A stretch of DNA of 64,000 nt, taken from the NCBI GenBank assembly GCA_964630205.1, contig CAZVTM010000002.1, positions 31,235 to 95,234 on the forward strand, given 5' to 3'. Source of the DNA: an uncultured Helicobacter sp. Lineage in GTDB: Bacteria > Campylobacterota > Campylobacteria > Campylobacterales > UBA6016. Shown here in pieces: positions 15,909-32,957 of this stretch. The position numbers and the translations under genes are program-made. The notes under the pieces are model-generated. The model ran no database searches and had not been told where the DNA came from. It worked only from the letters and a program-made list of their open reading frames with translations. How positions within the stretch are numbered: position 1 is the stretch's first letter; each line of letters starts with the position of its first letter.

Positions 15909-17318
15909 ATGAACATACTACTTACAGGTGCAACGGGCTATATCGGCAGACGCCTAAAACATAGGCTTCTAAAAGAAAGCGACGTAAAATTGAGACTTTT
16001 TGTCAAAAAAGGGCAAAGCGTAAAAACCTCCGATACGGTAGAAATAGCTGAAGGTAGCACATTTGACCAAGAAAGCCTAGATAGCGCCCTAAAAAATATC
16101 GATACGGCATACTATCTCATCCACTCGATGGAGTCCAAAAACTACCGGGAACTAGACAAAAAAAGCGCGCAAAACTTCCTTGACTCCTGCATAAAAAACG
16201 GGGTAAAACGGATAATTTATTTGGGTGGACTCGGCGAAAAAGAGAGCGCAAGCGAACATTTACTTAGCAGGATAGAAACGGGAGAGATACTAAGTTCTCG
16301 TCCGGATGCCGTCCAGACGCTATGGTTTCGCGCGGGGGTCATCATAGGCTCAGGCTCCGCAAGTTTTGAGATAGTCCGCAACCTCGTTGAAAAGCTCCCT
16401 TTTATGATAACGCCGAAATGGGTAAATACCCTCTGTCAGCCGAGCGCAGAAGCAGACGTAATAGAGTATTTGGCAAATGCGTCAATACTGCAAAATAAAG
16501 AGAGTGCCATAATAGATATAGGCGGTGAGGCGATGAGTTACCGCGAGCTTTTGCTTGGATACGCTAGAGCCGTAGGGCTAAAAAGAGTCTTGATTCCCGT
16601 TCCTTTTTTCTCGCCGAAGCTCTCCTCGTATTGGCTTACCCTCATGACTCCCGTACCCTACTCCGTCGCATCGGCGCTTATCGAGGGGCTAAAAAGCGAA
16701 GCGGTAGTCAAAAACGATAACGCAAAAAAATATTTCCCCCACATCGTCCCGCTAGACTACGAAACCGCCGTCAAAAAAGCACTCGAAGACATCCAAAACT
16801 CTCAGATAATCAGCAGATGGTCGGATGCCTCAAAAGACGCATGGGAAAACGACCACTCCAAAATAGCGGAGGCGGTCTTTGTCGATAGGCAGAGTATCGA
16901 ACTGGGCGGCACCCCTCCGCAAAAAGTTTTTGAGACGATATCCGCCGTCGGGGGCGATAACGGGTGGTTCGGGTATGAAACCCTATGGCAAATCAGAGGG
17001 TTTATAGACAAGATAATCGGCGGATACGGCCTCTCCAGAGGGAGACGAGACCCGAAACATCTGAGGGTCGGGGATAGCGTAGACTTTTGGAAAGTGGTAG
17101 ATGTCAGGGAAAACGAGAGACTTTTGTTGTTTGCTCAGATGAAACTCCCCGGCAAAGCTTGGCTAGAGTGGACGATAAAAGACGGCAAACTCCACCAAAG
17201 CGCATATTTTTATCCGCACGGCCTCATGGGACGGCTATACTGGTACGCCATGGCACCGTTTCACCTGTTTATATTCGGCGGAATGGCAAAAAATATCATA
17301 AAAAAGGGTAAAAATTGA
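15909..17318 (+). CDS. NAD(P)-binding SDR-family protein with C-terminal DUF2867-like domain
   Basis: Start set at MNILLTGATGYIGRRL (Rossmann GxxGxxG). The track's longer start overlaps the divergent promoter region. TTGA overlap with pglA. Confidence 0.75.
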   Translation: MNILLTGATGYIGRRLKHRLLKESDVKLRLFVKKGQSVKTSDTVEIAEGSTFDQESLDSALKNIDTAYYLIHSMESKNYRELDKKSAQNFLDSCIKNGVKRIIYLGGLGEKESASEHLLSRIETGEILSSRPDAVQTLWFRAGVIIGSGSASFEIVRNLVEKLPFMITPKWVNTLCQPSAEADVIEYLANASILQNKESAIIDIGGEAMSYRELLLGYARAVGLKRVLIPVPFFSPKLSSYWLTLMTPVPYSVASALIEGLKSEAVVKNDNAKKYFPHIVPLDYETAVKKALEDIQNSQIISRWSDASKDAWENDHSKIAEAVFVDRQSIELGGTPPQKVFETISAVGGDNGWFGYETLWQIRGFIDKIIGGYGLSRGRRDPKHLRVGDSVDFWKVVDVRENERLLLFAQMKLPGKAWLEWTIKDGKLHQSAYFYPHGLMGRLYWYAMAPFHLFIFGGMAKNIIKKGKN

Positions 17319-18412
17319 AAATCGGCTTTCTCTCTCATCTGGATCTCAACCTGTATGCTTTTAGGCTCCCCGTCATATTGGAGTTAAAACGGCTAGGACA
17401 TACGCCGATAGCGATAGCGCCGGAGGGGGCTTATCTGCAAAAAATCAGAGAGACCGGAATAGAGTGCGTAACCTACGGTATAGAACGCAAAAGTCTAAAT
17501 CCCCTAAAAGAGATAAAAGCGATACAAAATATATATGAAGCGATAAAACCGCTAAATCTCGACATCCTTCACACGTTTACGGCAAAACCGAATATCTACG
17601 GAACGATAGCCGGACGGTTAGCCAAAGTGCCTCGTATCATAAATCTAGTAGAGGGGCTTGGGAGTTTTTATCTCGAAAACGACCTAAAAAGCAGAGTTGT
17701 CCGCACCCTCATAGAGCGGCTATACAAACAGATTTTCAGACTTTCAAACGCCGTAATGTTCGTAAACTCCGACGATCCGGAGTATATGAGCCGCAAAAAC
17801 ATTATAGACCCGAAAAAAATAGTCAAAATAAACGGTGTCGGGATAGACACAAAAGAGTGGAGCCGCAAAAAAGCCGCAAAGGAGCCGCTAACCGTCGTGA
17901 TGGTTGCCAGACTCATCAGGCACAAAGGGGTAATCGAATATTTACAGGCATCTCAAAATCTAAAAGAGAGATACGGGGATGTACGCTTTGTATATGTCGG
18001 CGGCGAGGATTTCGGCAACCATAGCGGACTGGGAAAAGAGATATTTGAAAACTACAAAGGGGTGGAGTATCTAGGCGAGAGGAGCGACATCAAAGAGCTG
18101 CTTGAAGATTCGCATATATTTGTACTCCCAAGCTACAGAGAGGGGCTGCCTAGAACCGCTTTGGAGGCTATGAGTATGGAGGTGGCGGTGGTCGGAGCCG
18201 ATGCGTGCGGGACTAGAGATGTCGTCCGAGACGGCAAAACAGGGCTTTTGGTTCCGGTAAAAGAGAGTCAGGCGCTTGAGGCGGCAATCGAAAAGCTGAT
18301 AACCGATGAAAAACTACGCAACAAACTGACAAAAACAGCCAGAGAGGTATGCGTAAAAGAGTACGACATAAAACCCATAGTAAAAGCACATTTGAGGGTT
18401 TACGGGATATAG
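17315..18412 (+). CDS. pglA: GT4 glycosyltransferase, PglA-like (first GalNAc transferase of N-glycan pathway)
   Basis: 365 aa, TTG start. It appears collinear with my recollection of C. jejuni PglA: MxIGFLSH..Y.FR.P, LVEGLGSFY, YLG.RSD..ELL....IFVLPSY.EG.P. Confidence 0.75.
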   Translation: MKIGFLSHLDLNLYAFRLPVILELKRLGHTPIAIAPEGAYLQKIRETGIECVTYGIERKSLNPLKEIKAIQNIYEAIKPLNLDILHTFTAKPNIYGTIAGRLAKVPRIINLVEGLGSFYLENDLKSRVVRTLIERLYKQIFRLSNAVMFVNSDDPEYMSRKNIIDPKKIVKINGVGIDTKEWSRKKAAKEPLTVVMVARLIRHKGVIEYLQASQNLKERYGDVRFVYVGGEDFGNHSGLGKEIFENYKGVEYLGERSDIKELLEDSHIFVLPSYREGLPRTALEAMSMEVAVVGADACGTRDVVRDGKTGLLVPVKESQALEAAIEKLITDEKLRNKLTKTAREVCVKEYDIKPIVKAHLRVYGI

Positions 18413-18688: not shown

Positions 18689-19360
18689 ATGCTAAAGAAA
18701 GTTATTTTGGCCGGATTACTTGTAGTAAGCGGTGCCAATGCCGGAATGTTTGATTCTGTTGTCTCTGCTGTGGGGGGGGGTTCGACAGCAAAAGCTGTTG
18801 ACGGCAACGCCCTAGACTCTGTTATACAAAACTACTTTACGGCAAAAGCCCTATTACAAAAATCTTCAGAAGCCCTAAGCAAAGCTATACTTTCAAAAGA
18901 AGAATCCGGAAAATTCGAATCGGCACTCAAAGCGGCTGAATCCATCTCAGATCCAAAAGAAAAAGATGCAGCCATCAGCAAAGCCGTAAGCGATGTTCAA
19001 ACAGCCCTAAAAGCTGCTATAGAGTCCAAGCAAATTATAGAGCAAGTTAAAAAAGCCGATAAAAAAACAAGAGAACAGCTCGTCGTCGGCGGATTCAATT
19101 TTATACTGTCTGGACTCAAGTATAAAGATACTCTAACTAGTGCAAAAGATATGGTGTCTTCATTGTCGTCAAACCCTACCGCCGCAATGCAGTATACATC
19201 ACAACTCGGACAACTAAAAGATATGGTCGCAACACTTCCGGAAAACATAACATTGATAGCCACAATCGGAAGTAAATTGGTAGATTTGTACAAAGCCGGA
19301 AAAGTAAACTTTACAGCCCCTACAAGCAGCTCGCAAGCCCCAAAAGAAAGCAGTAAATAA
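18689..19360 (+). CDS. Secreted helical protein, putatively phase-variable (G9 tract)
   Basis: AAGGAG RBS and signal peptide MLKKVILAGLLVVSGANA. A G9 run at codons 28-31 is in frame as sequenced. No family recognised. Confidence 0.75.
   Translation: MLKKVILAGLLVVSGANAGMFDSVVSAVGGGSTAKAVDGNALDSVIQNYFTAKALLQKSSEALSKAILSKEESGKFESALKAAESISDPKEKDAAISKAVSDVQTALKAAIESKQIIEQVKKADKKTREQLVVGGFNFILSGLKYKDTLTSAKDMVSSLSSNPTAAMQYTSQLGQLKDMVATLPENITLIATIGSKLVDLYKAGKVNFTAPTSSSQAPKESSK
18772..18780 (+). repeat. Poly-G (G9) homopolymeric tract inside a CDS
   Basis: Direct read: tg-ggggggggg-ttc. G8 or G10 gives stop codons within about 15 codons. Confidence 0.9.
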
Positions 19361-20867: not shown

Positions 20868-22897
20868 CGACAATAAGTCTACACAAAAAAATAAGCTCCG
20901 TATTGGCGACACTACTTGCGTCTGCCGTATCCGCCGTTGCCGGAGATTCTTTTGCTATCTGAGCACCGAAAATGGTAATAACCGAGGATAGTATCGAAAA
21001 AAACCAAGCATTTCACTACTCCAAAGGGGCAAATAGCCAGAATATCCTAGAGGCTTTTAATACGGCAATAAGGAAATATTATCCGGATATAAAAACAGAG
21101 CTTGATAAAAAAAATGTAAAAAATAGTTTTGCCGTTTATCTGAAAGTCTCAAGAGCCTCAATATACGAAGAGCAGTTGCCTAACTCATCGGTAAAAAGCT
21201 ACACTCTACCTGTAACTGCCAGTATAAACTTTATCAATATGGCAAACGGCGATATTATCTACTCCCACTCATACACAAATATTGTTCAGGGAAATTTGGC
21301 CGCATCCGGAGACGAAAAAATAAAAAAACTAGCCGAATGGTATACAACTGGATATTCATCGCTATTTGAACACCTAGCAAAAGAAGCTAGTCAAAAATTT
21401 AAGCCACATAAACTATCTACAAAAGTCATTGGAAAATACGACGGCCTATTGATACTTGATAAAGGGCTAGACGGTGGCATAGCCAAAGGTGATACGCTAG
21501 ACAGGGAAAACGGAAGCGTAGAAGTCTTATATTCCGCAAACGGATACTCCATAGGTCAGGATGAATTCCCAAAGTATCCAAGTCAAGATGGTGATATTCT
21601 CGTAAAAACATACAACGGCTCTTTGGACGGTGTAAAAAAACCAAGAGTTACGCTGCTGGATATATCAACCGATAAGCAAATCGGGGATTTGCCGCCGGAA
21701 CAAATGCTTTACGATGTTTTTTCGGACAAAATAGCACAACAAAGCAGTTTTACCGTCACTTCGATCGGCAAAGATTTTTATGCTGCCAAACGAGACATTA
21801 TTTCAAAGTCAGGTGTAAGAGTACTGGAGGGCAAAAGATCAGTACCAGATTATTATATCAGACTCTCGTATGACGGCCCATTTTACTACTCAGCTCCGAC
21901 GAATCTCGACTATGCAGAACAAAGGCATTATTATGCCGGAGCATGCGGCGAACTTGTGGACATAAGCGGCAGAGTATTTCACAGCGACTGTGCATTTGAC
22001 AATATCTCCGATGAGATTGTCCACGGCAAGGGACTCTCCAAAAGCTCAAGATATGAGACGGTAATGAAAAATGCGACGTTATCATTGGCGGAGTCTTTCT
22101 CAAAAGGAGTTTCGTTTGATAAAGTCTCATACAAAATCACAAATCTAAAAGCCTCAAAAATAGAGTTTGAAGATGAAAAAAACCTATTGGCCCCCGGCGC
22201 ATCTATCACAATATATAAAAATATCGGTTCGGTGGGCGACAAAAAAGACGTTTTAATCCCCATTCAGGAAGCAACCATAGATGAGAAAAAAGAAGGTACT
22301 GCGATTGCAACCTTGGATTCCATCAAAATAACTCCGAAGCTAAACGTAGAGAAAGGTGATTTTATAGTCGAAGATATAGTGTCCGCAAACACTCCGTCAG
22401 ACGCAAAGCTATTTAGTTTTTGCGCAAAATCAGGGAAAATGGATATCGGCACTATTGACGGGTATGACTCTGTGACTAGATATTTAGTAAAAAAAACTTT
22501 TAAACAATTACTATATGACGGGCAAGGGCTAACGGAGGCTATACGAAAAAATATAGATGAAGCGAAATTTGAGCACACGCCGAAAGTTACGACCCCCTCC
22601 ACAAAATACTGCGTTCAGCCCCTATACTGGCTTGAGCCTAAAGGCAAAAAACAGTCTGAACATATCGGCTTTGAAACCGCATTATTTGACATAACATCTG
22701 GCTTCAGGATTTATGAAACAAATGAAATCAAAAACAAAACACCGAAAGATGCCGCCTTTGTATCCAAAAAATCATTCGAAACAAATCTTGCACTCGAAAT
22801 CCCAATAAAAAGTTCGAAAGAGTACCTCAGGATAGAGCTTTTGAAAAATTCATTGCCTAGCTTTAGCTCGTCAGTATCATCCATTCAAACACCGTAA
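20864..22897 (+). pseudogene. Large secreted protein gene interrupted by an in-frame TGA directly after its signal peptide (downstream ORF 20972..22897 intact)
   Basis: AGGAG is 8 nt upstream of the TTG at 20864 (TTGA overlap with the previous stop). It encodes MTTISLHKKISSVLATLLASAVSAVAGDSFAI, then TGA at 20960-20962, then APK-MVITEDS... in the same frame. The ATG at 20972 has only a weak RBS. Confidence 0.6.
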
Positions 22898-22909
22898 GGA
22901 TTAGAGTAA

Positions 22910-23329
22910 ATGAAAAAAGTCGCAATGCTACTTTGTATTACCGGATTGCTTTTCGGAGAGTCGTCAAGCCATGCAGAATCTAGTTCTTCCTCTTTTAGCT
23001 CCTCCTCTTCGCAAAGTTTCTCTAAAACTATCACCGACGACAAGGTAAGCTCAAATACAAAAAAATATGTTGAATCTTCAAACGGCAACGAAGTGTTATT
23101 TTCACTTGGAAAAAACACACAAACACTATCCGGCTCCCTATTTGTCAAACAAGGCAATATAAGTTGCGAATTTACCGATAAAGAATTGACAAAAAACGGA
23201 AGCACATATGTGTTTAAAGACCGTGACAGCGGATGTATTTTTACGATAAAAAATAACTCTAAATCAATTTCCGTAGACTACACAAAAACCAAGTGTATTA
23301 ACGCCGGATACTGTAAAATAAGGCAATAA
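22910..23329 (+). CDS. Secreted Ser-rich small protein
   Basis: 139 aa with signal peptide MKKVAMLLCITGLLFG, followed by SSSHAESSSSSFSSSSSQS. Confidence 0.7.
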   Translation: MKKVAMLLCITGLLFGESSSHAESSSSSFSSSSSQSFSKTITDDKVSSNTKKYVESSNGNEVLFSLGKNTQTLSGSLFVKQGNISCEFTDKELTKNGSTYVFKDRDSGCIFTIKNNSKSISVDYTKTKCINAGYCKIRQ

Positions 23330-23331
23330 CG

Positions 23332-23559
23332 ATGAATAATAATCAGCAATCAACACTGTTAGGCATTATCGCATTTTTGTGTTTTGTCAATTTATTAATA
23401 GGAGCCTATCTCCTAAAAAATACATTTGACAAGAACGAGCAAGACGTAACTCCAAACGTAAGCACCGAAAAAAACTACGATGAACTAAATGAAAAGCTTG
23501 ATAAGTTTTTTGAAAAACAAAATCAAGATATGCAAAAACTTTTTGAAGGAAATAAATGA
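23332..23559 (+). CDS. Small single-pass membrane protein
   Basis: 75 aa with one TM (LLGIIAFLCFVNLLIGAYLL). Tightly packed between its neighbours, with a 4-nt overlap downstream. Confidence 0.55.
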   Translation: MNNNQQSTLLGIIAFLCFVNLLIGAYLLKNTFDKNEQDVTPNVSTEKNYDELNEKLDKFFEKQNQDMQKLFEGNK

Positions 23560-23939
23560 AAATTGGATTATCTCTGGCGACACTTGTTTTGTCGATATTA
23601 TTTGCAGGGTGTGCCTCTTATCAAACGCATACACACGTTGGTGGACAAACCGAAAAACCAAGTATATCCGGAATAGAAAACAAAAACGGTTCTCTGACGC
23701 TTACTCTAAAAGGAAGTTCATATTATGGAAATCTTGTATTTGATGCAAAAAAGAGATTTGAATTACACCCTATGATTGCAAATATCACAGGTAATGCAAA
23801 AGGGCATTTGGTGTCAAAAACAGGCAAAACAATCACCTGCGTGATGGAACTAATGGAAGAGACAAAAAGCGGCACAGGATATTGCTTAGAAGAGGACAAT
23901 CCTCAAATTTTAAAATTTAGTGTAATTAATATGGACTAA
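23556..23939 (+). CDS. Lipoprotein
   Basis: 127 aa with a lipobox (LSILFAGC) after a hydrophobic leader. Confidence 0.7.
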   Translation: MKIGLSLATLVLSILFAGCASYQTHTHVGGQTEKPSISGIENKNGSLTLTLKGSSYYGNLVFDAKKRFELHPMIANITGNAKGHLVSKTGKTITCVMELMEETKSGTGYCLEEDNPQILKFSVINMD

Positions 23940-24016
23940 GCGGAATCGCCTAATAACTGGCGCAATACACAAAAACCAAAAACCGCTATAATTGCCAAAA
24001 AAATTTTGGGATACCG

Positions 24017-26116
24017 ATGCGAAAAATAGTGCAATACGATAAAAAAACGGCCATATTATTTGCCATAGCTTTTTTGATCAGTTTTTTTGCCCGTATGTAT
24101 TGGGTGGATTACGCTTCAAACGTCGAAGAGTACAAATTTAACAATCAGGTTATGATCAATACGAACGACGGCTACTTCTATGCCGAAGGGGCAAGAGATC
24201 TTATCAAAGGCTCTCACGAGGCAGGAGATAGAAGCGCCGTCACAGAACCGGTGGCTATAGCTACCGCCGCTCTATACAAAATCCTCCCTTTTTCAATAGA
24301 AACGCTAATGCTATATATGCCGGCTGTACTGGGCTCACTAGTCGTAATCCCCGTTATTTTGATAGGTAGATTTTTTGGCCAGCCTATGATGGGCTTTTTT
24401 GCGGCGATGTTTGGCGCAATTACCCACAGCTACTACAACCGCACAATGGCGGGATACTATGATAGCGATATGTTCGCCCTTGTCGTGCCCCCTTTTGCCG
24501 CTGCATTTCTCATCGGCTACTTCAAAGAAAAAAGAATTTTGTGGCAAGCGCTGTTTTTGGCCTCTCTCGCCCTCTCAAAAATACTTTACCCGCAGTCTTT
24601 TGCGTGGATGGCGGCGACGGTCGGTTTTGCGTTTTTGTATACGCTAGTTTTTGATAGAAAAAACAAAGAGATATACCTAACTCTCATACTTGCGCTTATT
24701 GCTGTTTGCGACTTGCCTACGGCGGCAAAAGCAGTCATTATAACGGCTAGTTTGTACTTTCAGCCAAGATTGACGCTTGACTACAAATCGTTAATTGCTT
24801 TTGCAATAGCGGCACTGGCCGTATTTGCATATTTTGGGGGTCTGACTCCGGTAATCGGGTCGTTAAACGCATACCTTTTCAAAGACAGCCTAACGGTAAC
24901 AAGTACGCTCAAATACTATGACGTAGTGCAGACGGTACAGGAAGCAGGCAAGATGGACCCAAACCTGTTTGCCTCCCGAATATCAGGCTCAATGCCTATC
25001 TTTATCGCCGCAATTATCGGTTATGGACTTTTTATCAAAAAAGAGAAGCTTTTTGCCCTGACCCTTCCTATTTTCGGGCTTGGGCTTTTTGCTTATTTTA
25101 GCGGCCTTAGATTTACTGTTTATGCTGTTCCATTCGCCGCTCTCGGGCTTTTTTATCTGATTTTTTGGGGACTCAAAAATCTTGACGAACGGGCAAAAAT
25201 AGCGGTTGCCTCACTCTCATTTCTCATAGCCTCTATACCAAACTTCTACCATATCTACGACTACAAAGTCGACACGGTATTTCCAAGCGGGATAGTCAAG
25301 CAGATTTCAGAGCTTGGCAAAAAAGCGTCAAGAGAGGATTATGTTTTTACATGGTGGGATTACGGCTATCCGGTTAGATATTACGCCGATGTCAAAAACC
25401 ACTCCGACGGCGGCAAACACGACGGAGCAACTAACTTTATAGAGTCTTTTATTATCTGCTCGACTAGTCAAAATGCGGCGGCAAACATGATGAGAGAGTC
25501 CGTAGAGGCTTACGAGGAGCTAATAAAGCAAGGTAAAGAGCAAAAAACGGCAACACTAGAGTATATGCTCGCCAAAAACGGCTTCAAAAACGAAGATTAT
25601 CAGCAATATCTATCGGCGCTAGCCTCAAATACTCATAAAAAAAGTGTAAAAACGAGAGATGTCTATCTATTTTTGCCATACGAAATGTTTGGAATACTCC
25701 CAACCATAAAGCTATTTTCAAATGTTGATTTGAATACCGGAGCTGAAGTCTCAAGTCCGTCTTTTTTGATGTTCAACCACTATAACGAAACTGAAGATAG
25801 CATAGATTTCGGCGGTGCAGTTTTTGACAAAAAAACAAAAACCATAAAATTCGGCGAAAAAACAATACACCTCAAAAGCGTAAGCATCTCCTATTACGAC
25901 AAAAACGGCACACTCGCAACCAAAACCGACAGCGGCTCCAGCACCGGAGAGCTACACCTCATATCGCTTCCGACATACGGCGCATACATACTAGCGGATG
26001 ATGAGATGTTTAACTCGCTATTCATACAAATGTTTGTCTTTGAAAATTACGACAGGAATCTATTTGAAAAAGTCTCAAGCACATATGAGGCAAAAATCTT
26101 TAGGCTCAAAATCTGA
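24017..26116 (+). CDS. pglB: Oligosaccharyltransferase PglB (STT3 family)
   Basis: 699 aa with a polytopic N-terminal half and the catalytic WWDYGY motif ([13 protein letters not shown]). Followed by pglC and pglD. Confidence 0.95.
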
Positions 26117-26118
26117 CG

Positions 26119-26727
26119 ATGTACAAAGCGGTATTCAAAAGGGTGTTTGATTTTTTGCTAGCGCTTTTTTTGTGCACGATTTTTCTGCCGATTTTTGCGG
26201 TCACTTTTTTTGTTGTTAGAGCCAAGCTAGGCTCTCCCGTCTTTTTCACCCAAGAACGCCCGGGGATAGGCGGTAAGATATTTAAAATTTATAAATTCCG
26301 TACAATGACAAACGAGCGAGACGAAAGCGGCGAGCTACTTCCAGACGAAGCAAGGCTAAAAGGGGTCGGCAAGACGATAAGACGGCTAAGCCTAGACGAG
26401 CTACCGCAACTACTCAATGTCCTAAAAGGGGAGATGAGCTTCGTAGGGCCCCGCCCGCTTCTGCCCGAGTACCTCCCGCTATACAACGCTAGACAAGCCA
26501 CGAGGCACACCGTACTCCCAGGTATCACGGGTCTAGCGCAGGTGATGGGGCGAAATGCGATAAGCTGGGGCGAAAAACTGGAGTGGGATGCAAAATACGT
26601 CGAAAACATATCATTCAAACTAGACCTCCAAATCATCCTCTGGACGGTAAAAAAAGTCCTAAAAAGCGAGGGGGTCAGCAAAGATGGGATGGCGACGACC
26701 GATAAGTTTACTGGAAATAACGGTTGA
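26119..26727 (+). CDS. pglC: Undecaprenyl-phosphate diNAcBac-1-phosphate transferase PglC
   Basis: 202 aa, near-collinear with C. jejuni PglC (KRxFDFxLAL, KIYKFRTM, [22 protein letters not shown]). Confidence 0.93.
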
Positions 26728-27329
26728 AAAAGATATACATCTACGGAGCAAGCGGTCACGGCAAAGTGATAGCCGACATAGCGAGAGCTTGCGGTTATGA
26801 GATAGAGGGTTTCGTAGACGATGACCCCCTCAAAACCGAATTTTGCGGCTACCCCTGCATCAGAGGGGGGCAGATGGAGCAAACTATCGCCGTAGCTGTC
26901 GCCATAGGTGGAAACAAGGCCAGAAAAGCGGTATTTGAGAGGTTAAAATCAAACGGCTATAGCCTCCCCGCCCTCACCCATCCAACCGCCGTAGTATCTC
27001 CGTCCGCCTCGGTGGGTGAAGGCTCGGTCGTTATGCCCCTTTGCGTCATAAACGCCTACGCATCTATCGGGGTCGGCTGTATCATCAATAGCGGGGGCAT
27101 AGTTGAGCATGACTGCACAATCGGTGATTTTGTCCACATCTCCCCAAACGCCGCCCTTGCGGGGGGTGTCCATGTCGGCAATATGAGCCACATCGGCATC
27201 GGCGCAACCGTCATCCAACTCATAAAAATCGGCAAGGACTGCACTATCGGAGCCGGAGCCGCTGTAGTCTCCGACATTTCAGACGGTGCAACGGCTGTGG
27301 GCGTACCGGCTAAAGTCATCATCAAATAG
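26724..27329 (+). CDS. pglD: UDP-4-amino-sugar N-acetyltransferase PglD (NeuD/hexapeptide family)
   Basis: [12 protein letters not shown]-terminus, hexapeptide repeats, GVPAK C-terminus. 4-nt overlap with pglC. Confidence 0.9.
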
Positions 27330-27338
27330 AGGCCTGAT

Positions 27339-28344
27339 ATGAATAACTTGACGCAAAACGACAATCTATACCAAAGCGTCAAAAACATCCTCCAAACCGC
27401 AAGAGACAACGCCTACAGACAAGTCAACTTCATCATGGTTGAGGCGTATTGGAATAATCGTAGAGGAAGAACAAAACGGCAAAGACAGGGCGGAGTACGG
27501 CTCATATCTCATCAAAGAGCTTTCATCGAGGCTAACGAGCGAGTTTGGCAAGGGGTTTACGGCTAGCAACTTGAAAATGATGAGGCAGTTTTATCTTGCT
27601 TTTCCAATTGGACACACACTGTGTGACCAATTGAGCTGGAGCCATTATCGCCTTATTATGAGGCTAGACAATCCACAAGCCAGACTTTGGTATATGGAAG
27701 AATCCGCCAAAGCAAACTGGAGCGTACGGGCGCTAGAGCGGCAAATCGGAACATTTTATTACGAGCGGATAATATCGAGCAAAGATAAACAACCCGTAAT
27801 AGCGGAAGCGACAAGCAATACCAAAGACCTACAACTCACCCCAAAAGACATCATCAAAGACCCTTATGTGTTGGAGTTTTTGGATCTCAAGCAAAACAAT
27901 GCTTTTTATGAAAGCGACTTAGAATCCGCCCTTATCGAAAAAATACAGGAATTTTTGCTGGAACTTGGGCGTGGGTTTGCTTTTGTAGCGAGGCAAAAGA
28001 GGGTCAAGACCGAGGCGAGCGATTTTTATATTGACCTAGTTTTTTACAACTACATCCTCAAATGCTTCGTCCTCATAGACCTCAAAAGCGGCAAACTAAC
28101 CCATCAAGATGTCGGTCAGATGGATATGTATGTGCGGATGTACAACGATATGGAAAAAGCCGAAAACGACAATCCGACGATAGGTATCATACTCTGCACC
28201 GACAAAGACAACACCGTCGTCAAATACTCTGTTTTGAATGAAAACGAAAATTTGTTTGTCTCGAAGTATCAGCTGTATTTGCCGACGGAAGAGGAACTAA
28301 AAAGAGAGATTGAGAGGGATGTTTTGGAGCTTGGGCGGCGGTAG
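27339..28344 (+). pseudogene. DUF1016/YhcG-type PD-(D/E)xK nuclease gene, frameshifted
   Basis: The N-terminal 35 aa (..ARDNAYRQVNFIMVEAYW) and the body (IGIIVEEEQNGKDRAEYGSYLIKELSSRL..GKGF..NL..MRQFY) are in different frames. The break is at about 27447-27460, where TATTGG and ATTGGA share nucleotides. The C-terminus has the D..ExK-like core (IDLVFYN..VLIDLK). Confidence 0.7.
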
Positions 28345-28489
28345 TTTTGTGTGGAAAAAAGTAGTCTGCCCTCGTCTTTTGTATAAGATCGAAATTGCCA
28401 CCGCTCGGTGCCGGAATAAAAAGTATCAAAGACGCTTTAAAAAGTGATTTATCGACTATAGACTTCGATAAACAGACAAAGGACTAATT

Positions 28490-28762
28490 ATGCTAAGAGA
28501 TAAAAATGGACAATACCTAAAGGAAGGGGATTATATTTGTATATGCGATAAGTATTTGGTGCAAATTCATGAATTTCCAAGCGTAGGCATGGGATTTAAT
28601 GTAAAAGATATTTGTGGAGGCTGCCCTACTATCGACCCCGGTTGCCTCAAGGCAAACCATAGAAATATTGGTAATACTCAAGGACAAATACCATTAAGCT
28701 TTTTAGATTTGACAAAGATTGAAAAATGCACAAAAGAAGAAAGGCTAGAACTTTGTATTTGA
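28490..28762 (+). CDS. Hypothetical Cys-rich small protein
   Basis: 90-aa ORF inside the low-GC insert. No recognisable motif, and coding status is unverified. Confidence 0.35.
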   Translation: MLRDKNGQYLKEGDYICICDKYLVQIHEFPSVGMGFNVKDICGGCPTIDPGCLKANHRNIGNTQGQIPLSFLDLTKIEKCTKEERLELCI

Positions 28763-28770
28763 CGGAAAAT

Positions 28771-28778
28771 GGGGGGGG
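28771..28778 (+). repeat. Intergenic poly-G (G8) tract
   Basis: Direct read: aaaat-gggggggg-ttagg, 9 nt after the stop of the 28490 ORF and 120 nt upstream of the 28898 ORF. Confidence 0.9.
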
Positions 28779-28897
28779 TTAGGTATATTCAATCTTCACT
28801 TTTCCCTCACTTTCGCCCTCTCGAACGGGAGCGCATATAGCACACGGTCTATGCAAAATAACACCGGCTTTATCTGAACATCTGTTATAATCACAAA

Positions 28898-29131
28898 ATG
28901 AACGAAAAAGACCAAATCGATAAGCTTTCAAAAATCGCCGATATTGTCAACAAAAAGCTTATAGCTCTTTTGGCGATAGATGGCGGGGTTGGGGCATATG
29001 CCGTGAAATTTATAGAGCAAAACAATGTTTTTGGTTATGCTCTCGGCATGATATTTATCGTAGTATCTATCGGCGTGGCTTATAACTACAATGAGTTAAA
29101 CAGACTCAAACAAGCGGTGGAGGAATTATAA
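28898..29131 (+). CDS. Small two-TM membrane protein
   Basis: 77 aa with two hydrophobic helices. Confidence 0.45.
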   Translation: MNEKDQIDKLSKIADIVNKKLIALLAIDGGVGAYAVKFIEQNNVFGYALGMIFIVVSIGVAYNYNELNRLKQAVEEL

Positions 29132-29132
29132 A

Positions 29133-29237
29133 ATGGAAGATATAGGACTTTTGGGCTTAGCTGTAGGTTTTGTGTTTGCTTGGATAGTAGGGTATATTGC
29201 CCACAAAAAACACTGGAAAATTGGAAATATTTTTTAA
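29133..29237 (+). CDS. 34-aa single-TM peptide (not in ORF track)
   Basis: GGAGG is 9 nt upstream of the ATG at 29133. Product: MEDIGLLGLAVGFVFAWIVGYIAHKKHWKIGNIF. Starts 1 nt after the previous stop. Confidence 0.35.
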   Translation: MEDIGLLGLAVGFVFAWIVGYIAHKKHWKIGNIF

Positions 29238-29326
29238 ACTCATACAGATGACATCCAATGGCACCGTAAGCCAATCCAAGCTAATTATCGAAAAAGGTGT
29301 GGGCTATTTTTTAAAGAAGCTTCAAA

Positions 29327-29638
29327 TCAATACCCCTGAATAATCAAATCCATAGCTTCAAAAATTTCAGCCCTATAGTCGCCAATATTTTGAATAGGCT
29401 TTGTCAACTCTTCAGCAGGATATGAAGCTAGTTCATCAAATAGTGCGATATATTTTTTGCCCTTTATTGTTATACCAAGATGTAGCGTTTTTACGGGGAA
29501 TTTTATCATTGAAGACGGTGTTAACGGAACTACGATTCTTGTGGCTAGTTTTTTAAGCGTATCAGACTGAATGTCTAGCAGATAAGGAAACTCTTTGTTT
29601 GTGGCTCTGTTTTTGTTGGCATAGACATCAAATTGCAT
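29327..29638 (-). CDS. ccdB: CcdB-family gyrase-poisoning toxin
   Basis: 103 aa with MQFDVY....... and LLDIQSD....L.TR.V.PL, collinear with F-plasmid CcdB (MQFKVY..LFVDVQSD..RRMVIPL). Confidence 0.85.
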   Translation of the reverse strand: MQFDVYANKNRATNKEFPYLLDIQSDTLKKLATRIVVPLTPSSMIKFPVKTLHLGITIKGKKYIALFDELASYPAEELTKPIQNIGDYRAEIFEAMDLIIQGY

Positions 29639-29639
29639 A

Positions 29640-29924
29640 CTAAAATCTTCTCACGCTATCACCAAAAACCCCTCTTTTTGCGACCCTCTCATTTTGTTCA
29701 TTTATCGCCTCGGCGTTTTCCTTTTCCCAAAGAGCCGCCTTTTGTTTTGCCAAAATCTCTTTTTCGATATTTTCAAGCTCTATTACTCTGTTTCTATGGA
29801 TTATAGTCAGCTCAAGCATCTCTTGTTCTTTTGGTTTTATATTGAGGTCTATCTTACCGTCTCTTTGAAGCATTTGCGCAATCGCATCGGACTTTAGATG
29901 CGTAAAAGTACTAAAAGACATCAT
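29640..29924 (-). CDS. ccdA: CcdA-family antitoxin
   Basis: Start set at the ATG at 29924 (GGAGATATAAA RBS). The C-terminal W.KEN.EAI...N..V...G.F.D..R.F matches CcdA. 1-nt gap to ccdB. Confidence 0.8.
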   Translation of the reverse strand: MMSFSTFTHLKSDAIAQMLQRDGKIDLNIKPKEQEMLELTIIHRNRVIELENIEKEILAKQKAALWEKENAEAINEQNERVAKRGVFGDSVRRF

Positions 29925-29938
29925 TTTATATCTCCAAC

Positions 29939-29968
29939 TATCGATACATTTATCGATGATATTATCGA
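29939..29968. promoter_or_regulatory. Three TATCGA(T) repeats at 12-bp spacing upstream of ccdA (putative CcdAB operator)
   Basis: TATCGATA at 29939, TATCGAT at 29951 and TATCGAC at 29963, immediately 5' of the ccdA start on the minus strand. Confidence 0.5.
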
Positions 29969-30048
29969 CAAAAAACTTAAAACACGCCACGCCGCCGCAT
30001 AACCCTAAAATCGCTATAATCACGCAAAAATTACGGCTAGGAAAACAG

Positions 30049-31176
30049 GTGAGCGAACGCATTTTCTTATCAGCCCCGCACATGGGCGGCAATGAACTTA
30101 AATACATACAAGAAGCTTTTGATGCAAACTATATAGCTCCGATAGGTGAGCAGATAACGAAATTTGAAGAGGCGATAAAGACTTATACGGGAGCGAAACA
30201 TGCCGTAGCTCTCTCTAGCGGTACGGCGGCGATACATCTAGCCCTTCGTACGCTTGGTATCAAAGACGGCGATGAGGTGCTGGCTTCATCATTTACCTTT
30301 ATAGGCGGTATCGCTCCTATCATGTATGAGAGATGTACGCCTTTTTTTATTGATTCGGATGAAGATAGTTGGAATATTGACCCATTACTACTCCTTGAGG
30401 CGTTAGAATCACGCAAAAAAAGCGGCAAAATGCCAAAAGCTCTCATCGTAGCCCACCTCTACGGTCAAGCGGCAAAGATGGATGAAATAACGGCGATATG
30501 CGACAAATACGGTGTCGCTATCATAGAAGACGCCGCAGAGTCGCTGGGTGCGACAATAAATGGAAAACACACGGGAACTATCGGCAAGGCAGGGATTTAT
30601 TCGTTTAACGGTAACAAAATCATCACCTCAAGCGGCGGCGGTATGCTTGTAACTGACGATGAGCAAATTGCCAAAGAGGCTAGATTTCTCTCCACGCAGG
30701 CGAAAGAGCCGTACTTGCACTACGAGCACGAGACATTCGGCTACAACTATCGCATGAGCAATATAGTGGCGGCGATAGGCAGAGGGCAGATGGAAGTATT
30801 GCCGCAGAGAGTCGAGAGACGCAGAGAGATTTTTGCCCTTTACCGTGAACTGCTCAAGGATATCCCTGAACTAAAATTTATGCCGGAAATCGCAGGAAGC
30901 CGTGGCAATAGATGGCTTACGACTTTTTATATGGACGCAAAGCTAAAAGCAACTCCAAACGACATCATAAAGGCGCTTGAAGAGCAAAATATCGAGTCAA
31001 GGCCGCTATGGAAACCGATGCATACACAGCCTGTGTTCAAAGATGCGCCGCATATCACAAACGGCTTTTCAGAGATGTTATTTGAAAGAGGTATATGCCT
31101 ACCGTCGGGCTCGTCGATGGATGATGAGGCGGTAATGCTGGTCGCCAAAATAGTGAAGGATGTAGTCCAAAAATGA
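30049..31176 (+). CDS. pglE: UDP-4-keto-6-deoxy-GlcNAc aminotransferase PglE (DegT family)
   Basis: Collinear with C. jejuni PglE from (V)SERIFLSAPHMGGNELKYI. GTG start at 30049 with AGGA upstream. The track's 5' extension overlaps the ccdA promoter. Confidence 0.9.
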   Translation: MSERIFLSAPHMGGNELKYIQEAFDANYIAPIGEQITKFEEAIKTYTGAKHAVALSSGTAAIHLALRTLGIKDGDEVLASSFTFIGGIAPIMYERCTPFFIDSDEDSWNIDPLLLLEALESRKKSGKMPKALIVAHLYGQAAKMDEITAICDKYGVAIIEDAAESLGATINGKHTGTIGKAGIYSFNGNKIITSSGGGMLVTDDEQIAKEARFLSTQAKEPYLHYEHETFGYNYRMSNIVAAIGRGQMEVLPQRVERRREIFALYRELLKDIPELKFMPEIAGSRGNRWLTTFYMDAKLKATPNDIIKALEEQNIESRPLWKPMHTQPVFKDAPHITNGFSEMLFERGICLPSGSSMDDEAVMLVAKIVKDVVQK

Positions 31177-32957
31177 ACCTTTTTACACCTACGCAGACGA
31201 AGCGGGCGCTGTTTTTTATAGTTGCCGATTTTGCATTGTCGCTTGCTAGCTTTTATGCGTCATATCTGCTCCGTTTTAACTTTGAGATACCGCCTCTGTT
31301 TATGGAGAATTTCTGCACGCTCTTTGCCCTGCTCGTCGCTCTCAAGATAGGCTCATTCGTGTTATTTCACGGTTACAAGACGCCGTGGAGATTTTTTGGT
31401 ATCCAAAACCTGCTAAATCTGGTCCGTGCCCATCTGCTAGCATACGCCGCTTTTGCGCTCATTTTTATCGTTTTTTCGGATACGCTAAACCCGTTTCCTC
31501 GCTCGGTGATATTTATAGATTTTGTCTTTTCGGTGTTTTTGCTAGGAGCGCTACGAATCTCAAAAAGGGTTTATATAGAGGCAAAAGCAGAGCGCAAAAA
31601 TCTATGCGTCATCATCGGGGCAACAAATGAAGGAAGCCTCATAGCCTCTCATCTCAAAAGCGGAAGCGGTGAATACTATCCTGTCGCATTCCTCGAAGAT
31701 GACAAACAAAAAATAGGCGGGATGATACACGGCTTTGCGGTACTCGGGCTAAAAGAGCTACAAAACTTTGCCGGCAAAAAAGAGATAAGCACGGCGCTCA
31801 TAGCAAAGCATTTTCACCCAAAAGAGCTTGAACGGCTGATGGATGAGCTAAAAAGCGTCGGAATCGAAAATGTCAAAAAAATATCTCTTTTTGAAAACCA
31901 CACCGACATCAAAGACATCTCAATCGAAGAGCTGCTGGCTCGTGAACCAAAAGACCTAGATACCGAGGCGGTTGCTAGATTTATCGCGGGCAAAAGCGTG
32001 CTCATCACGGGAGCCGGTGGCAGTATCGGTAGCGAAATCACGAGACAATGCGCAAAATTTGGCGCAAAAAAACTGATTTTGGTCGAAAACGGCGAATACA
32101 ACCTCTATAAAATCAGCGATGAGCTTTTCGCATACAACACGGTAAACAAACTCGTAAGCGTGGTGGACAAAGAGACGCTAAAAGGGGTTTTTGAAGAGCA
32201 TCGACCGCAGATAGTCATCCATGCCGCCGCCTACAAGCATGTGCCACTCGCTGAGGAAAACATCGAAGAGACGATAAAGAACAATATATTCGGCACCAAA
32301 AATACGGTGGAGCTCTCAGTTGAATACGGGGTAGAAAAATTTGTCCTCATCTCCACAGACAAGGCGGTGCGCCCTACAAATGTGATGGGGACAACAAAAA
32401 GAGTGTGCGAGCTAATCACCCAAAACATCAAACAAAAATACCCTAACGCAAAGACCGAGATAGCGGCGGTGAGGTTTGGCAATGTGATAGGCAGCTCCGG
32501 TTCTGTAATCCCGAAATTCAAAGAGCAGATAGCAAAAGGGGGGCCTATCACGGTCACACATCCTGACATCGAGAGATACTTTATGCTAATAGACGAGGCG
32601 TGCGCCCTCGTCCTTCAAGCGGCGGCGATAGCGAGGGGTAGCGAGATATTTATCCTTGACATGGGTGAGAGGGTCAGGATAGTCGATGTCGCCAAAAAGA
32701 TGATAGAACTAAGTGGCAAAGGGGATATAGAGATAGTCTTTACCGGACTCCGCCCCGGCGAGAAGCTAATAGAGGAACTTCTAACGGATGAGAGTGCCGC
32801 AAGCACGGAGTATCCCTCCATCACGGTGGCAAAAGAGAGCATATGCGACTACGCAAAACTAGAAAGCACATTAACAAAGCTATTAAACACAGACGATAAG
32901 CTCTCCATACTAAAAGAGCTTGTACCTGAATTTGACCATAAGCTAAACGGAAATTGA
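31173..32957 (+). CDS. pglF: UDP-GlcNAc C6 dehydratase PglF (CapD-like, membrane-anchored)
   Basis: 594 aa with N-terminal TMs, the Rossmann motif VLITGAGGSIGSE, the YKHVP active-site region and GNVIGSSGSVIP. Confidence 0.9.
   Translation: MNLFTPTQTKRALFFIVADFALSLASFYASYLLRFNFEIPPLFMENFCTLFALLVALKIGSFVLFHGYKTPWRFFGIQNLLNLVRAHLLAYAAFALIFIVFSDTLNPFPRSVIFIDFVFSVFLLGALRISKRVYIEAKAERKNLCVIIGATNEGSLIASHLKSGSGEYYPVAFLEDDKQKIGGMIHGFAVLGLKELQNFAGKKEISTALIAKHFHPKELERLMDELKSVGIENVKKISLFENHTDIKDISIEELLAREPKDLDTEAVARFIAGKSVLITGAGGSIGSEITRQCAKFGAKKLILVENGEYNLYKISDELFAYNTVNKLVSVVDKETLKGVFEEHRPQIVIHAAAYKHVPLAEENIEETIKNNIFGTKNTVELSVEYGVEKFVLISTDKAVRPTNVMGTTKRVCELITQNIKQKYPNAKTEIAAVRFGNVIGSSGSVIPKFKEQIAKGGPITVTHPDIERYFMLIDEACALVLQAAAIARGSEIFILDMGERVRIVDVAKKMIELSGKGDIEIVFTGLRPGEKLIEELLTDESAASTEYPSITVAKESICDYAKLESTLTKLLNTDDKLSILKELVPEFDHKLNGN

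Follow-up and report, generated by a model that had tools for sequence, protein, structure and literature searches.

Gene organization between pglD and pglE

The DNA analysed here is a 64-kb stretch from an uncultured Helicobacter sp. (hereafter the window, to which all unlabelled coordinates refer), in which a 2.7-kb islet at 27330-30048 parts pglD from pglE within a pgl N-glycosylation locus. In order, the islet carries a pseudogene of the nuclease gene yhcG, a small orphan open reading frame (ORF) designated orf90, an intergenic run of eight G residues (G8 tract), two small membrane-protein genes (orf77 and orf34), and a convergent ccdAB toxin-antitoxin (TA) pair. A first-pass annotation made from the sequence alone had listed these elements between pglD and pglE and had noted by eye a lower GC content in 28345-29640. 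All of the elements were found to be present, and the GC content of 28345-29640 was 37.3%, compared with 43.1% for the whole window and 46-54% for the flanking pgl genes, which places it in the lowest 3.6% among segments of the same size.

The pgl genes lie on the plus strand. The 699-aa ORF of pglB (24017-26116) aligns with the STT3/PglB genes of relatives and is followed by pglC (26119-26727) and pglD (26724-27329), the product of which matched Pfam PglD_N (3.7e-19) and Hexapep and the NCBIfam NeuD/PglB/VioB acetyltransferase model (6e-70). To the right of the islet are pglE, which starts with GTG (30049-31176; Pfam DegT_DnrJ_EryC1, 8.9e-99), pglF (31173-32957), and then metH. The clustering of pglB (STT3), pglC, pglD, pglE, and pglF, with PglD, PglE, and PglF recognized by their domains, identifies a Campylobacter-type pgl locus. 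Glycosyltransferase genes are not contiguous with this cluster, and one glycosyltransferase family 4 (GT4) gene was found at 17315-18412. The left edge of the islet is the stop codon of pglD, and homology to relatives runs out at 27313-27319. No open-access paper describing the pgl locus of this lineage was found, and an exact-sequence look-up with the PglD of the window gave no match.

The pglD-pglE junction in relatives

Relatives were collected by a PglE scan with one genome per species; loci and contigs of relatives, mostly short metagenome contigs, are given L-numbers below. The closest relatives were uncultured Helicobacteraceae/Campylobacteraceae metagenome-assembled genomes (MAGs), whose PglE proteins were 83-91% identical to that of the window. 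In two of them, L001 and L002, the stop codon of pglD lies 3-5 nt before the GTG of pglE or overlaps it. A spacing of 3-17 nt was also observed in L044 and L053 (Campylobacterota) and in Firmicutes/Bacteroidota clusters. This tight spacing in close relatives and outgroups indicates that pglD-pglE adjacency with translational coupling is the ancestral state and that the arrangement in the window is derived, as would be expected of the accessory insertion proposed in the first-pass annotation. Its premise that the two genes are adjacent in the reference locus does, on the other hand, need correction. In Campylobacter jejuni NCTC 11168, PglD and PglE are Cj1123c and Cj1121c, respectively (PMC3184161), and wlaJ (Cj1122c) is a variably present membrane-protein gene (PMC12102941); by locus-tag order, wlaJ therefore lies between pglE and pglD.

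The cargo at the junction differed among relatives. L003 and L116 carry BrnT (3.7e-22) and a CopG antitoxin (1.8e-32), followed by ccdAB 97% identical to that of the window. L057 carries Unstab_antitox (9.8e-11) and ParE together with a 30-bp footprint of the yhcG 3' end. yhcG is followed by a ParE module (2.1e-14) in L099, L100, and L102, with an additional GT4 fragment in L099; by orf90 with an internal deletion, orf77, orf34, and a PIN-type pair in L105; and by unrelated sequence in L101 and L106. An intact yhcG follows pglD in every contig whose upstream flank matches the window at 97-100% identity. The comparison of synteny thus revealed empty sites or other cargo in relatives, and because close relatives carry different cargo, the islet is not a set of genes that all of them share at this site.

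The possibility that the lineage inherited this arrangement from its ancestor, and that the empty sites of relatives are secondary deletions, was weighed against these data. It draws on the presence of yhcG directly after pglD in at least nine independent contigs, on the occupied site of the relative with the most divergent PglE (L003, 83%), and on the footprint in L057, which suggests that yhcG is old at this junction. However, tight adjacency is seen in the two close relatives, in Campylobacter outgroups, and in the Firmicutes/Bacteroidota clusters; the GC content of 28345-29640 is below that of both flanks; the cargo varies among relatives; and near-identical modules stand beside DNA that is 7-14% divergent. 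Secondary deletion is accordingly an improbable account of the empty sites.

Several further observations were made at the same junction in relatives. The footprint in L057 (L057:2415-2442) is 90% identical to 28333-28362 of the window and comprises the yhcG 3' end and the sequence just beyond it; L057 itself is without yhcG, and the footprint coincides with the end of the homology between the window and L099-L107. In L099, the ParE module is followed at L099:7736-8569 by a GT4 glycosyltransferase gene that seems to be broken into two parts (195 and 59 aa), so that junction cargo is not limited to TA genes. Two Campylobacter ureolyticus-like loci have a 69-aa gene, PhnA/YjdM-like by eye, between pglD and pglE (L050:9696-9905 and L052:9719-9928), and the pglD ORF of L052 is lengthened to 317 aa by an extra C-terminal domain. 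PglE of L003 (L003:1347-2636) contains about 23 inserted residues, DISPSAKQAASQSRELPTPEPSAG, which are lacking in the window and the other relatives.

Mosaic structure of the islet

The islet had been taken for a single 2.7-kb insert. Alignment with the contig L093 points instead to a composite. Between 28078 and about 29400, a stretch running from yhcG through orf34 into the 3' end of ccdB, L093 and the window agree at 99.6-100% identity, except for a 54-bp deletion in the orf90 of L093. Beyond about 29400 the identity drops to 93% in ccdAB and 86.5% in pglE, and this right-hand part of L093 is 98.5% identical to L003. In particular, orf77-orf34 is 100% identical at the nucleotide level between the window and L093, the pglE of which differs by 13.5%. 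The abrupt change of identity along L093 indicates that the modules have separate histories, and since the breakpoint falls inside ccdB, at least one exchange tract ends within a gene. A second boundary is marked by L099-L107, whose homology to the window ends at 28352-28380, 8-36 nt past the yhcG stop codon. From these identity steps and this end of homology, the islet is a mosaic in which at least four modules, each with a history of its own, can be told apart: yhcG (module 1), orf90 (module 2), orf77-orf34 (module 3), and ccdAB (module 4).

The yhcG pseudogene

Module 1 (27339-28344, plus strand) is a pseudogene of a YhcG/DUF1016 PD-(D/E)xK nuclease that starts 9 nt past the pglD stop codon. 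Both domains of the family were detected (DUF1016_N, 1.3e-36; YhcG_C, 1.2e-60), but the Pfam matches are split across two frames: positions 2-27 of DUF1016_N lie in one frame, and positions 28-137 and YhcG_C in another. A search with the repaired yhcG followed by alignment to one intact copy located an 11-bp deletion, ATCGGCAAGCA, at 27455/27456. Intact copies are many; they encode 338 aa, are 97-99% identical, and stand directly after pglD in L099-L107. Because the window lacks 11 bp relative to the intact copies, the frameshift, which has so far been seen in the window only, is a real small deletion. An intact orthologue matched the PADLOC model PDC-S02 at 3.6e-151, and yhcG is a candidate single-gene defence nuclease, inactivated in the window by the deletion.

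At about 103 kb, the source contig of the window is probably a draft or a MAG, and together with the restriction of the frameshift to this contig, this raises the question of an assembly chimera or a sequencing error. However, every one of the junctions (pglD-yhcG, yhcG-orf90-orf77-orf34, orf34-ccdB, and ccdA-pglE) was encountered again in independent metagenome assemblies, which shows that the islet is not an assembly artefact, and a deletion of 11 bp is atypical of homopolymer error. An error of either kind is therefore extremely improbable.

orf90 and the G8 tract

orf90 (28490-28762, plus strand) encodes a soluble 90-aa orphan protein with no family match in Pfam, PHROG, NCBIfam, or PADLOC. 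Five close homologues and eight further small stand-alone ones (52-124 aa) were found. The proportion of nonsynonymous differences (pN) was 0.09-0.20, against a synonymous proportion (pS) of 0.40-0.80. AlphaFold2 predicted a small beta-rich fold with a predicted local distance difference test (pLDDT) score of 93.6; the matches from fold searches, which included several YopX-type phage proteins, were weak, and none reached E<=0.001. The protein has seven cysteines, and a reading as a cysteine-rich zinc protein was rejected because the cysteines are not conserved in remote homologues. Matches in giant type IX secretion system surface proteins fall in Ig-like repeat regions and were judged uninformative.

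An in-frame 54-bp (18-codon) deletion, aligned to 28630-28683, was found in the orf90 of L093-L098, L104, and L105. Most other copies in the lineage carry this deletion, giving a 72-aa product without one conserved cysteine and its surroundings, and the copy in the window is full-length. Homologues with 69-82% amino acid identity occur in L081-L084 and L085-L092 within quite different gene strings. One neighbourhood consists of a 162-aa protein, orf90, a 285-aa leucine-rich repeat protein, small ORFs, and a HipA_C kinase, and the other of a 156-aa protein, orf90, and a 416-aa protein; the 156-162-aa neighbour shows a weak match to phrog_30240.

The G8 tract (28771-28778, plus strand) is intergenic, between the orf90 stop codon and the orf77 promoter, about 107 nt upstream of the orf77 -10 box and in no credible ORF. 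The tract is G8 in the window and five contigs and G9 in one low-coverage contig (L096). G/C runs of at least 7 in the 64 kb were limited to the G8 tract and a G9 at 18772-18780. The latter is within a 223-aa ORF (18689-19360) that has no Pfam match and lies just downstream of the GT4 gene; judging from the tract, this ORF could be a phase-variable gene.

The orf77-orf34 cassette

Module 3 is a pair of membrane-protein genes on the plus strand, orf77 (28898-29131; 77 aa) and orf34 (29133-29237; 34 aa). Orf77 contains one strongly hydrophobic helix, with a 17-residue Kyte-Doolittle peak of 2.36 at residues 44-60, and was predicted by AlphaFold2 to form a two-helix hairpin (pLDDT 86), and Orf34 has a single hydrophobic helix at residues 4-22. 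Homologues of orf77 formed 35 clusters with 70-98% identity (most of them 75-88%), mostly from Sulfurimonas and other Campylobacterota, and nearly always had at their 3' side a gene of about 34 aa with the C-terminal motif K(K/N)HWKI(A/G)x(Y/I)F. The pN and pS values of orf77-orf34 were 0.10-0.18 and 0.5-0.9, respectively. For orf90, orf77, and orf34 jointly, pN was 0.09-0.20 and pS 0.40-0.92, against homologues with saturated synonymous divergence. Since pN is far below pS, orf90, orf77, and orf34 are real genes under purifying selection. None of the three matched any defence or toxin family.

An extended -10 box, TGtTATAAT (28883-28891, plus strand), is located 6 nt upstream of the ATG of orf77. 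In an alignment of the homologous cassettes of Sulfurimonas-like contigs, TG-n-TAyAAT-N6-ATG was invariant. The position of this box suggests a leaderless orf77 transcript, and the box probably serves as the promoter of the cassette.

In the Sulfurimonas-like contigs L108-L114, pairs of the orf77-orf34 type (about 80 and 34 aa) are present as three to five diverged tandem copies, for example at L108:1000-3400, L110:4400-7700, and L113:600-6200. The arrays are interspersed with DUF4160/DUF2442, DUF2283, and PIN genes, and two of them abut tRNA genes. A hairpin repeat, AAAAAGGGTGTCAGGCAC, with a folding z of -3.6, follows most of the Sulfurimonas-like cassettes, and the arrays contain a Y1 transposase gene of 246-251 aa that scored 64-73 bits against the REP-associated tyrosine transposase (RAYT) model, the curated cut-off of which is 80. 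The repeat was detected neither in the window nor in close relatives, whether by a pattern with up to three mismatches or by an nhmmer profile, and we thus do not claim that the islet was built by the array system. The G8 tract and 29288-29312 were considered as degenerate copies of the repeat on the basis of a MAFFT alignment; the pattern, nhmmer, and folding analyses were unsupportive, and these candidates are regarded as unproven.

These arrays bear on the alternative that the cassettes of the islet were moved by a site-specific system acting in trans, integron-like or based on a REP-associated tyrosine transposase, with the pglD-pglE junction as its dedicated acceptor. The tandem copies among DUF4160/DUF2442, DUF2283, and PIN genes, the hairpin after most cassettes, and the resemblance of the Y1 transposase to the RAYT model speak for such a system. 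Moreover, the cassette promoter of the window aligns with those of the arrays, 29288-29312 and the G8 tract weakly resemble the repeat in position, and the module boundaries of the window lie in intergenic DNA. Against this, the putative repeat remnants do not fold, the repeat itself was undetected in the window and close relatives, the scanned ORFs of the window yielded neither a Y1 transposase nor an integrase domain, one breakpoint lies inside ccdB rather than at a module edge, and the transposase match is under the curated cut-off. We consider such a system unlikely to have assembled the islet.

As to the role of the pair, its TA neighbours, its multi-copy arrays, and its recent horizontal spread hint at a selfish or protective membrane module, a reading that we put forward only tentatively. 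Still more speculatively, orf77-orf34 would represent an undescribed two-gene membrane module family that is expressed leaderless, has spread as a cassette across Campylobacterota, and has the pglD/pglE junction as a preferred acceptor; its products might, for instance, act as an exclusion or defence pair, or one might be a small membrane toxin and the other its membrane-embedded partner.

The ccdAB toxin-antitoxin pair

Module 4 is encoded on the minus strand and consists of ccdB (29327-29638; Pfam CcdB PF01845, 2.7e-28, residues 2-102 of 103) and ccdA (29640-29924; Pfam CcdA PF07362, 2.2e-8, 34.8 bits against a cut-off of 22.4). ccdA comes first, with its stop codon 1 nt before the ATG of ccdB, and a GGAG is present 8 nt before its own ATG. 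The match of the 94-aa CcdA is confined to the C-terminal 39 residues, which form the toxin-binding part, and no match was detectable for the N-terminal 55 residues or so. The best solved relative of CcdB was Vibrio fischeri CcdB (2kmt; E 3.9e-17, about 40% identical). CcdB scored 38.7 bits against the NCBIfam equivalog, under the cut-off of 147, and is therefore a divergent member of the family. ccdB is 97% identical in L003 and L116, and an exact CcdB look-up retrieved an identical copy in L115, a short contig. With a full-length CcdB domain and an adjacent upstream CcdA, the convergent pair described in the first-pass annotation is present and intact, and its products are predicted to be a gyrase-poisoning toxin and its antitoxin.

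The promoter/operator region of ccdAB (29925-29997, minus strand) contains three TATCGA(T/C) motifs, at 29939-29946, 29951-29958, and 29962-29969, which are spaced by 11-12 nt and conserved in L003. By analogy with CcdA-regulated promoters, these motifs may constitute an operator.

The start region of pglE

pglE is preceded by a conserved 52-bp segment, CATAACCCTAAAAyCGCTATAATyACsCAAAAATTACGGCTAGGAAAACAG (29998-30048, plus strand), which contains TATAAT at 30015-30020 and AGGA at 30039-30042; the GTG follows at 30049. In the window, L003, and L057, which differ in cargo, the segment is conserved at 94-98%; it is absent from the empty sites of L001 and L002. A metagenome scan with it added no new haplotype, as the one contig retrieved was L003-like. 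Relatives with an empty site share the GTG start and the N-terminal motif (I/V)F L S x P H M G G N E, and an AGGA-like Shine-Dalgarno sequence occurs at the same position there, within the 3' end of pglD. The suggestion that pglE acquired its own start context therefore needs to be divided: the GTG and AGGA are ancestral, since both occur at empty sites, and the TATAAT belongs to the occupied-site segment only. Given its conservation, the 52-bp segment with the TATAAT probably acts as a promoter of pglEF. A consensus scan predicted no terminator-like site on the plus strand inside the islet, and read-through from pglBCD is thus possible, although it would run antisense through ccdAB.

Divergent pglB and pglC alleles

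Upstream of the islet, a second discontinuity was observed. The region from 24050 to 26400, comprising pglB and the 5' half of pglC, shares only 56-72% nucleotide identity with L099-L106, with sharp breakpoints; to either side of it (21150-24000 and 26500-28350), the identity of these contigs to the window is 97-100%. The divergent alleles share 59-65% of PglB and 86% of PglC residues, and in L103 the switch occurs after pglB codon 46. The pglB allele of the window was found in the window only, and the other allele in at least eight contigs. Two deeply divergent oligosaccharyltransferase alleles thus seem to segregate in one species.

Mobility and the origin of the islet

Mobility machinery was searched for in and around the islet. 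No recombinase, transposase, or integrase domain was detected in the islet ORFs or in the scanned large neighbouring ORFs, no tRNA gene was found in the 64 kb, and the direct or inverted repeats flanking the islet were limited to short ones at chance level. Rfam gave no match in the islet (E<=1) or in the whole window. The first-pass annotation had envisaged that the insert might occur elsewhere, on plasmids or phages. A BLAST search of plasmids and phages with the whole islet did not bear this out, as it returned only distant yhcG matches with 60-80% identity; IMG/VR contained no relative of orf77 or orf90.

These searches also bear on whether the islet is the remnant of a decayed prophage, plasmid, or integrative element. 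Such an origin would fit the classically plasmid-borne nature of ccdAB, the presence of yhcG-like genes on many plasmids, the weak YopX-like phage-protein fold matches of orf90, and the occurrence of orf90 homologues elsewhere beside proteins matching PHROG families. However, the plasmid and phage matches are limited to the yhcG part, at only 64-70% identity, and the IMG/VR search was negative; moreover, neither structural, replication, integration, phage, or conjugation genes nor att-like direct repeats were found. A decayed element is accordingly a very unlikely source of the islet.

Because no mobility machinery was found, homologous recombination is the best explanation for the mosaic, and we consider it probable that the islet is a non-autonomous accessory islet at a pglD/pglE recombination hot spot, the modules of which are exchanged by homologous recombination. 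Natural competence in Campylobacterota makes such exchange plausible. According to this model, pglD and pglE would have been translationally coupled in a Wolinella-like Campylobacterota lineage, with the pglD stop codon 3-8 nt from the GTG or overlapping it. The junction would then have opened and since held a changing set of small self-contained modules, gained, lost, or swapped by homologous recombination anchored in shared modules and in the conserved pgl genes on either side. Uptake of the DNA would most likely have occurred by natural transformation, with no recombinase encoded by the element. ccdAB and the other TA pairs of relatives would penalize loss of the segment; ccdAB would be driven by its own promoter with palindromic motifs and be transcribed towards the other modules, and pglE-pglF would be served by the TATAAT of the 52-bp segment, with or without read-through from pglBCD.

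Several points weigh against homologous exchange at a hot spot or against parts of the model. Complete pglD-to-pglE haplotypes are few (the window, L001, L002, and L057), and the rest are mostly short contigs. The relation of L093 to the window could be one of inter-species transfer or of a within-species mosaic. The promoter, operator, and leaderless-mRNA assignments are based on consensus motifs and conservation, and a sigma-70 consensus scan called neither of the two TATAAT boxes because they have no -35 sequence; promoters without a -35 sequence are usual in Campylobacterota. As the N-terminal half of CcdA is unmatched, its DNA binding and autoregulation are assumed. Finally, the small probability that a site-specific mechanism acted in trans has to be set against exchange by homology.

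The islet shows that selfish cargo can interrupt the normally compact, translationally coupled pglD-pglE step in the bacillosamine branch of N-glycosylation with retention of the pathway genes, and pglEF may be under separate transcriptional control in strains with an occupied site. wlaJ, the PhnA/YjdM-like gene, and the TA modules mark the junction as a recurrent landing site across Campylobacterota, and the site offers a small natural haplotype series for the study of TA turnover by recombination. The analysis also flags two conserved orphan families, orf90 and orf77-orf34. Its more interesting by-products are the family of orf77-orf34 cassettes and the deep divergence of the pglB/pglC alleles; the current understanding is not overturned.

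Comparison with known systems

The individual modules were compared with their characterized or candidate counterparts. Intact orthologues of yhcG are like PADLOC PDC-S02 (YhcG/DUF1016) both in their match and in having DUF1016_N and YhcG_C; the copy in the window differs in being a pseudogene, and PDC-S02 itself is a candidate defence system. ccdAB shares with the ccdAB of the F plasmid and the V. fischeri chromosome a full-length CcdB, the C-terminal toxin-binding region of CcdA, the order with the antitoxin gene first, the 1-nt spacer, and palindromic promoter motifs. It differs in its 94-aa CcdA with the unmatched N-terminal region and in its location inside a glycosylation operon.

As a whole, the islet resembles Vibrio superintegron arrays and defence/TA islands in consisting of small promoter-bearing modules, many of them TA, that differ between close relatives. 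Unlike superintegron arrays, it has no integrase in the scanned ORFs and no palindrome or other conserved repeat shared between modules (no attC-specific scan was made), and its exchange tracts end inside genes. The likeness to RAYT/REPIN systems, namely the hairpin repeat after most cassettes and a RAYT-like Y1 transposase gene, is shared by the Sulfurimonas-like arrays only, in which the transposase match stays below the curated cut-off; the window has neither repeat nor transposase, and was negative for the repeat by pattern, profile, and folding.

The nearest biological parallel is wlaJ. It differs from the islet in being a single gene with no TA modules, and the parallel drawn with the islet is one of position. 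What the two share is a variably present accessory membrane-protein gene at exactly the same pgl junction, and in type the islet is ordinary, a TA-bearing variable islet at a recombination hot spot.

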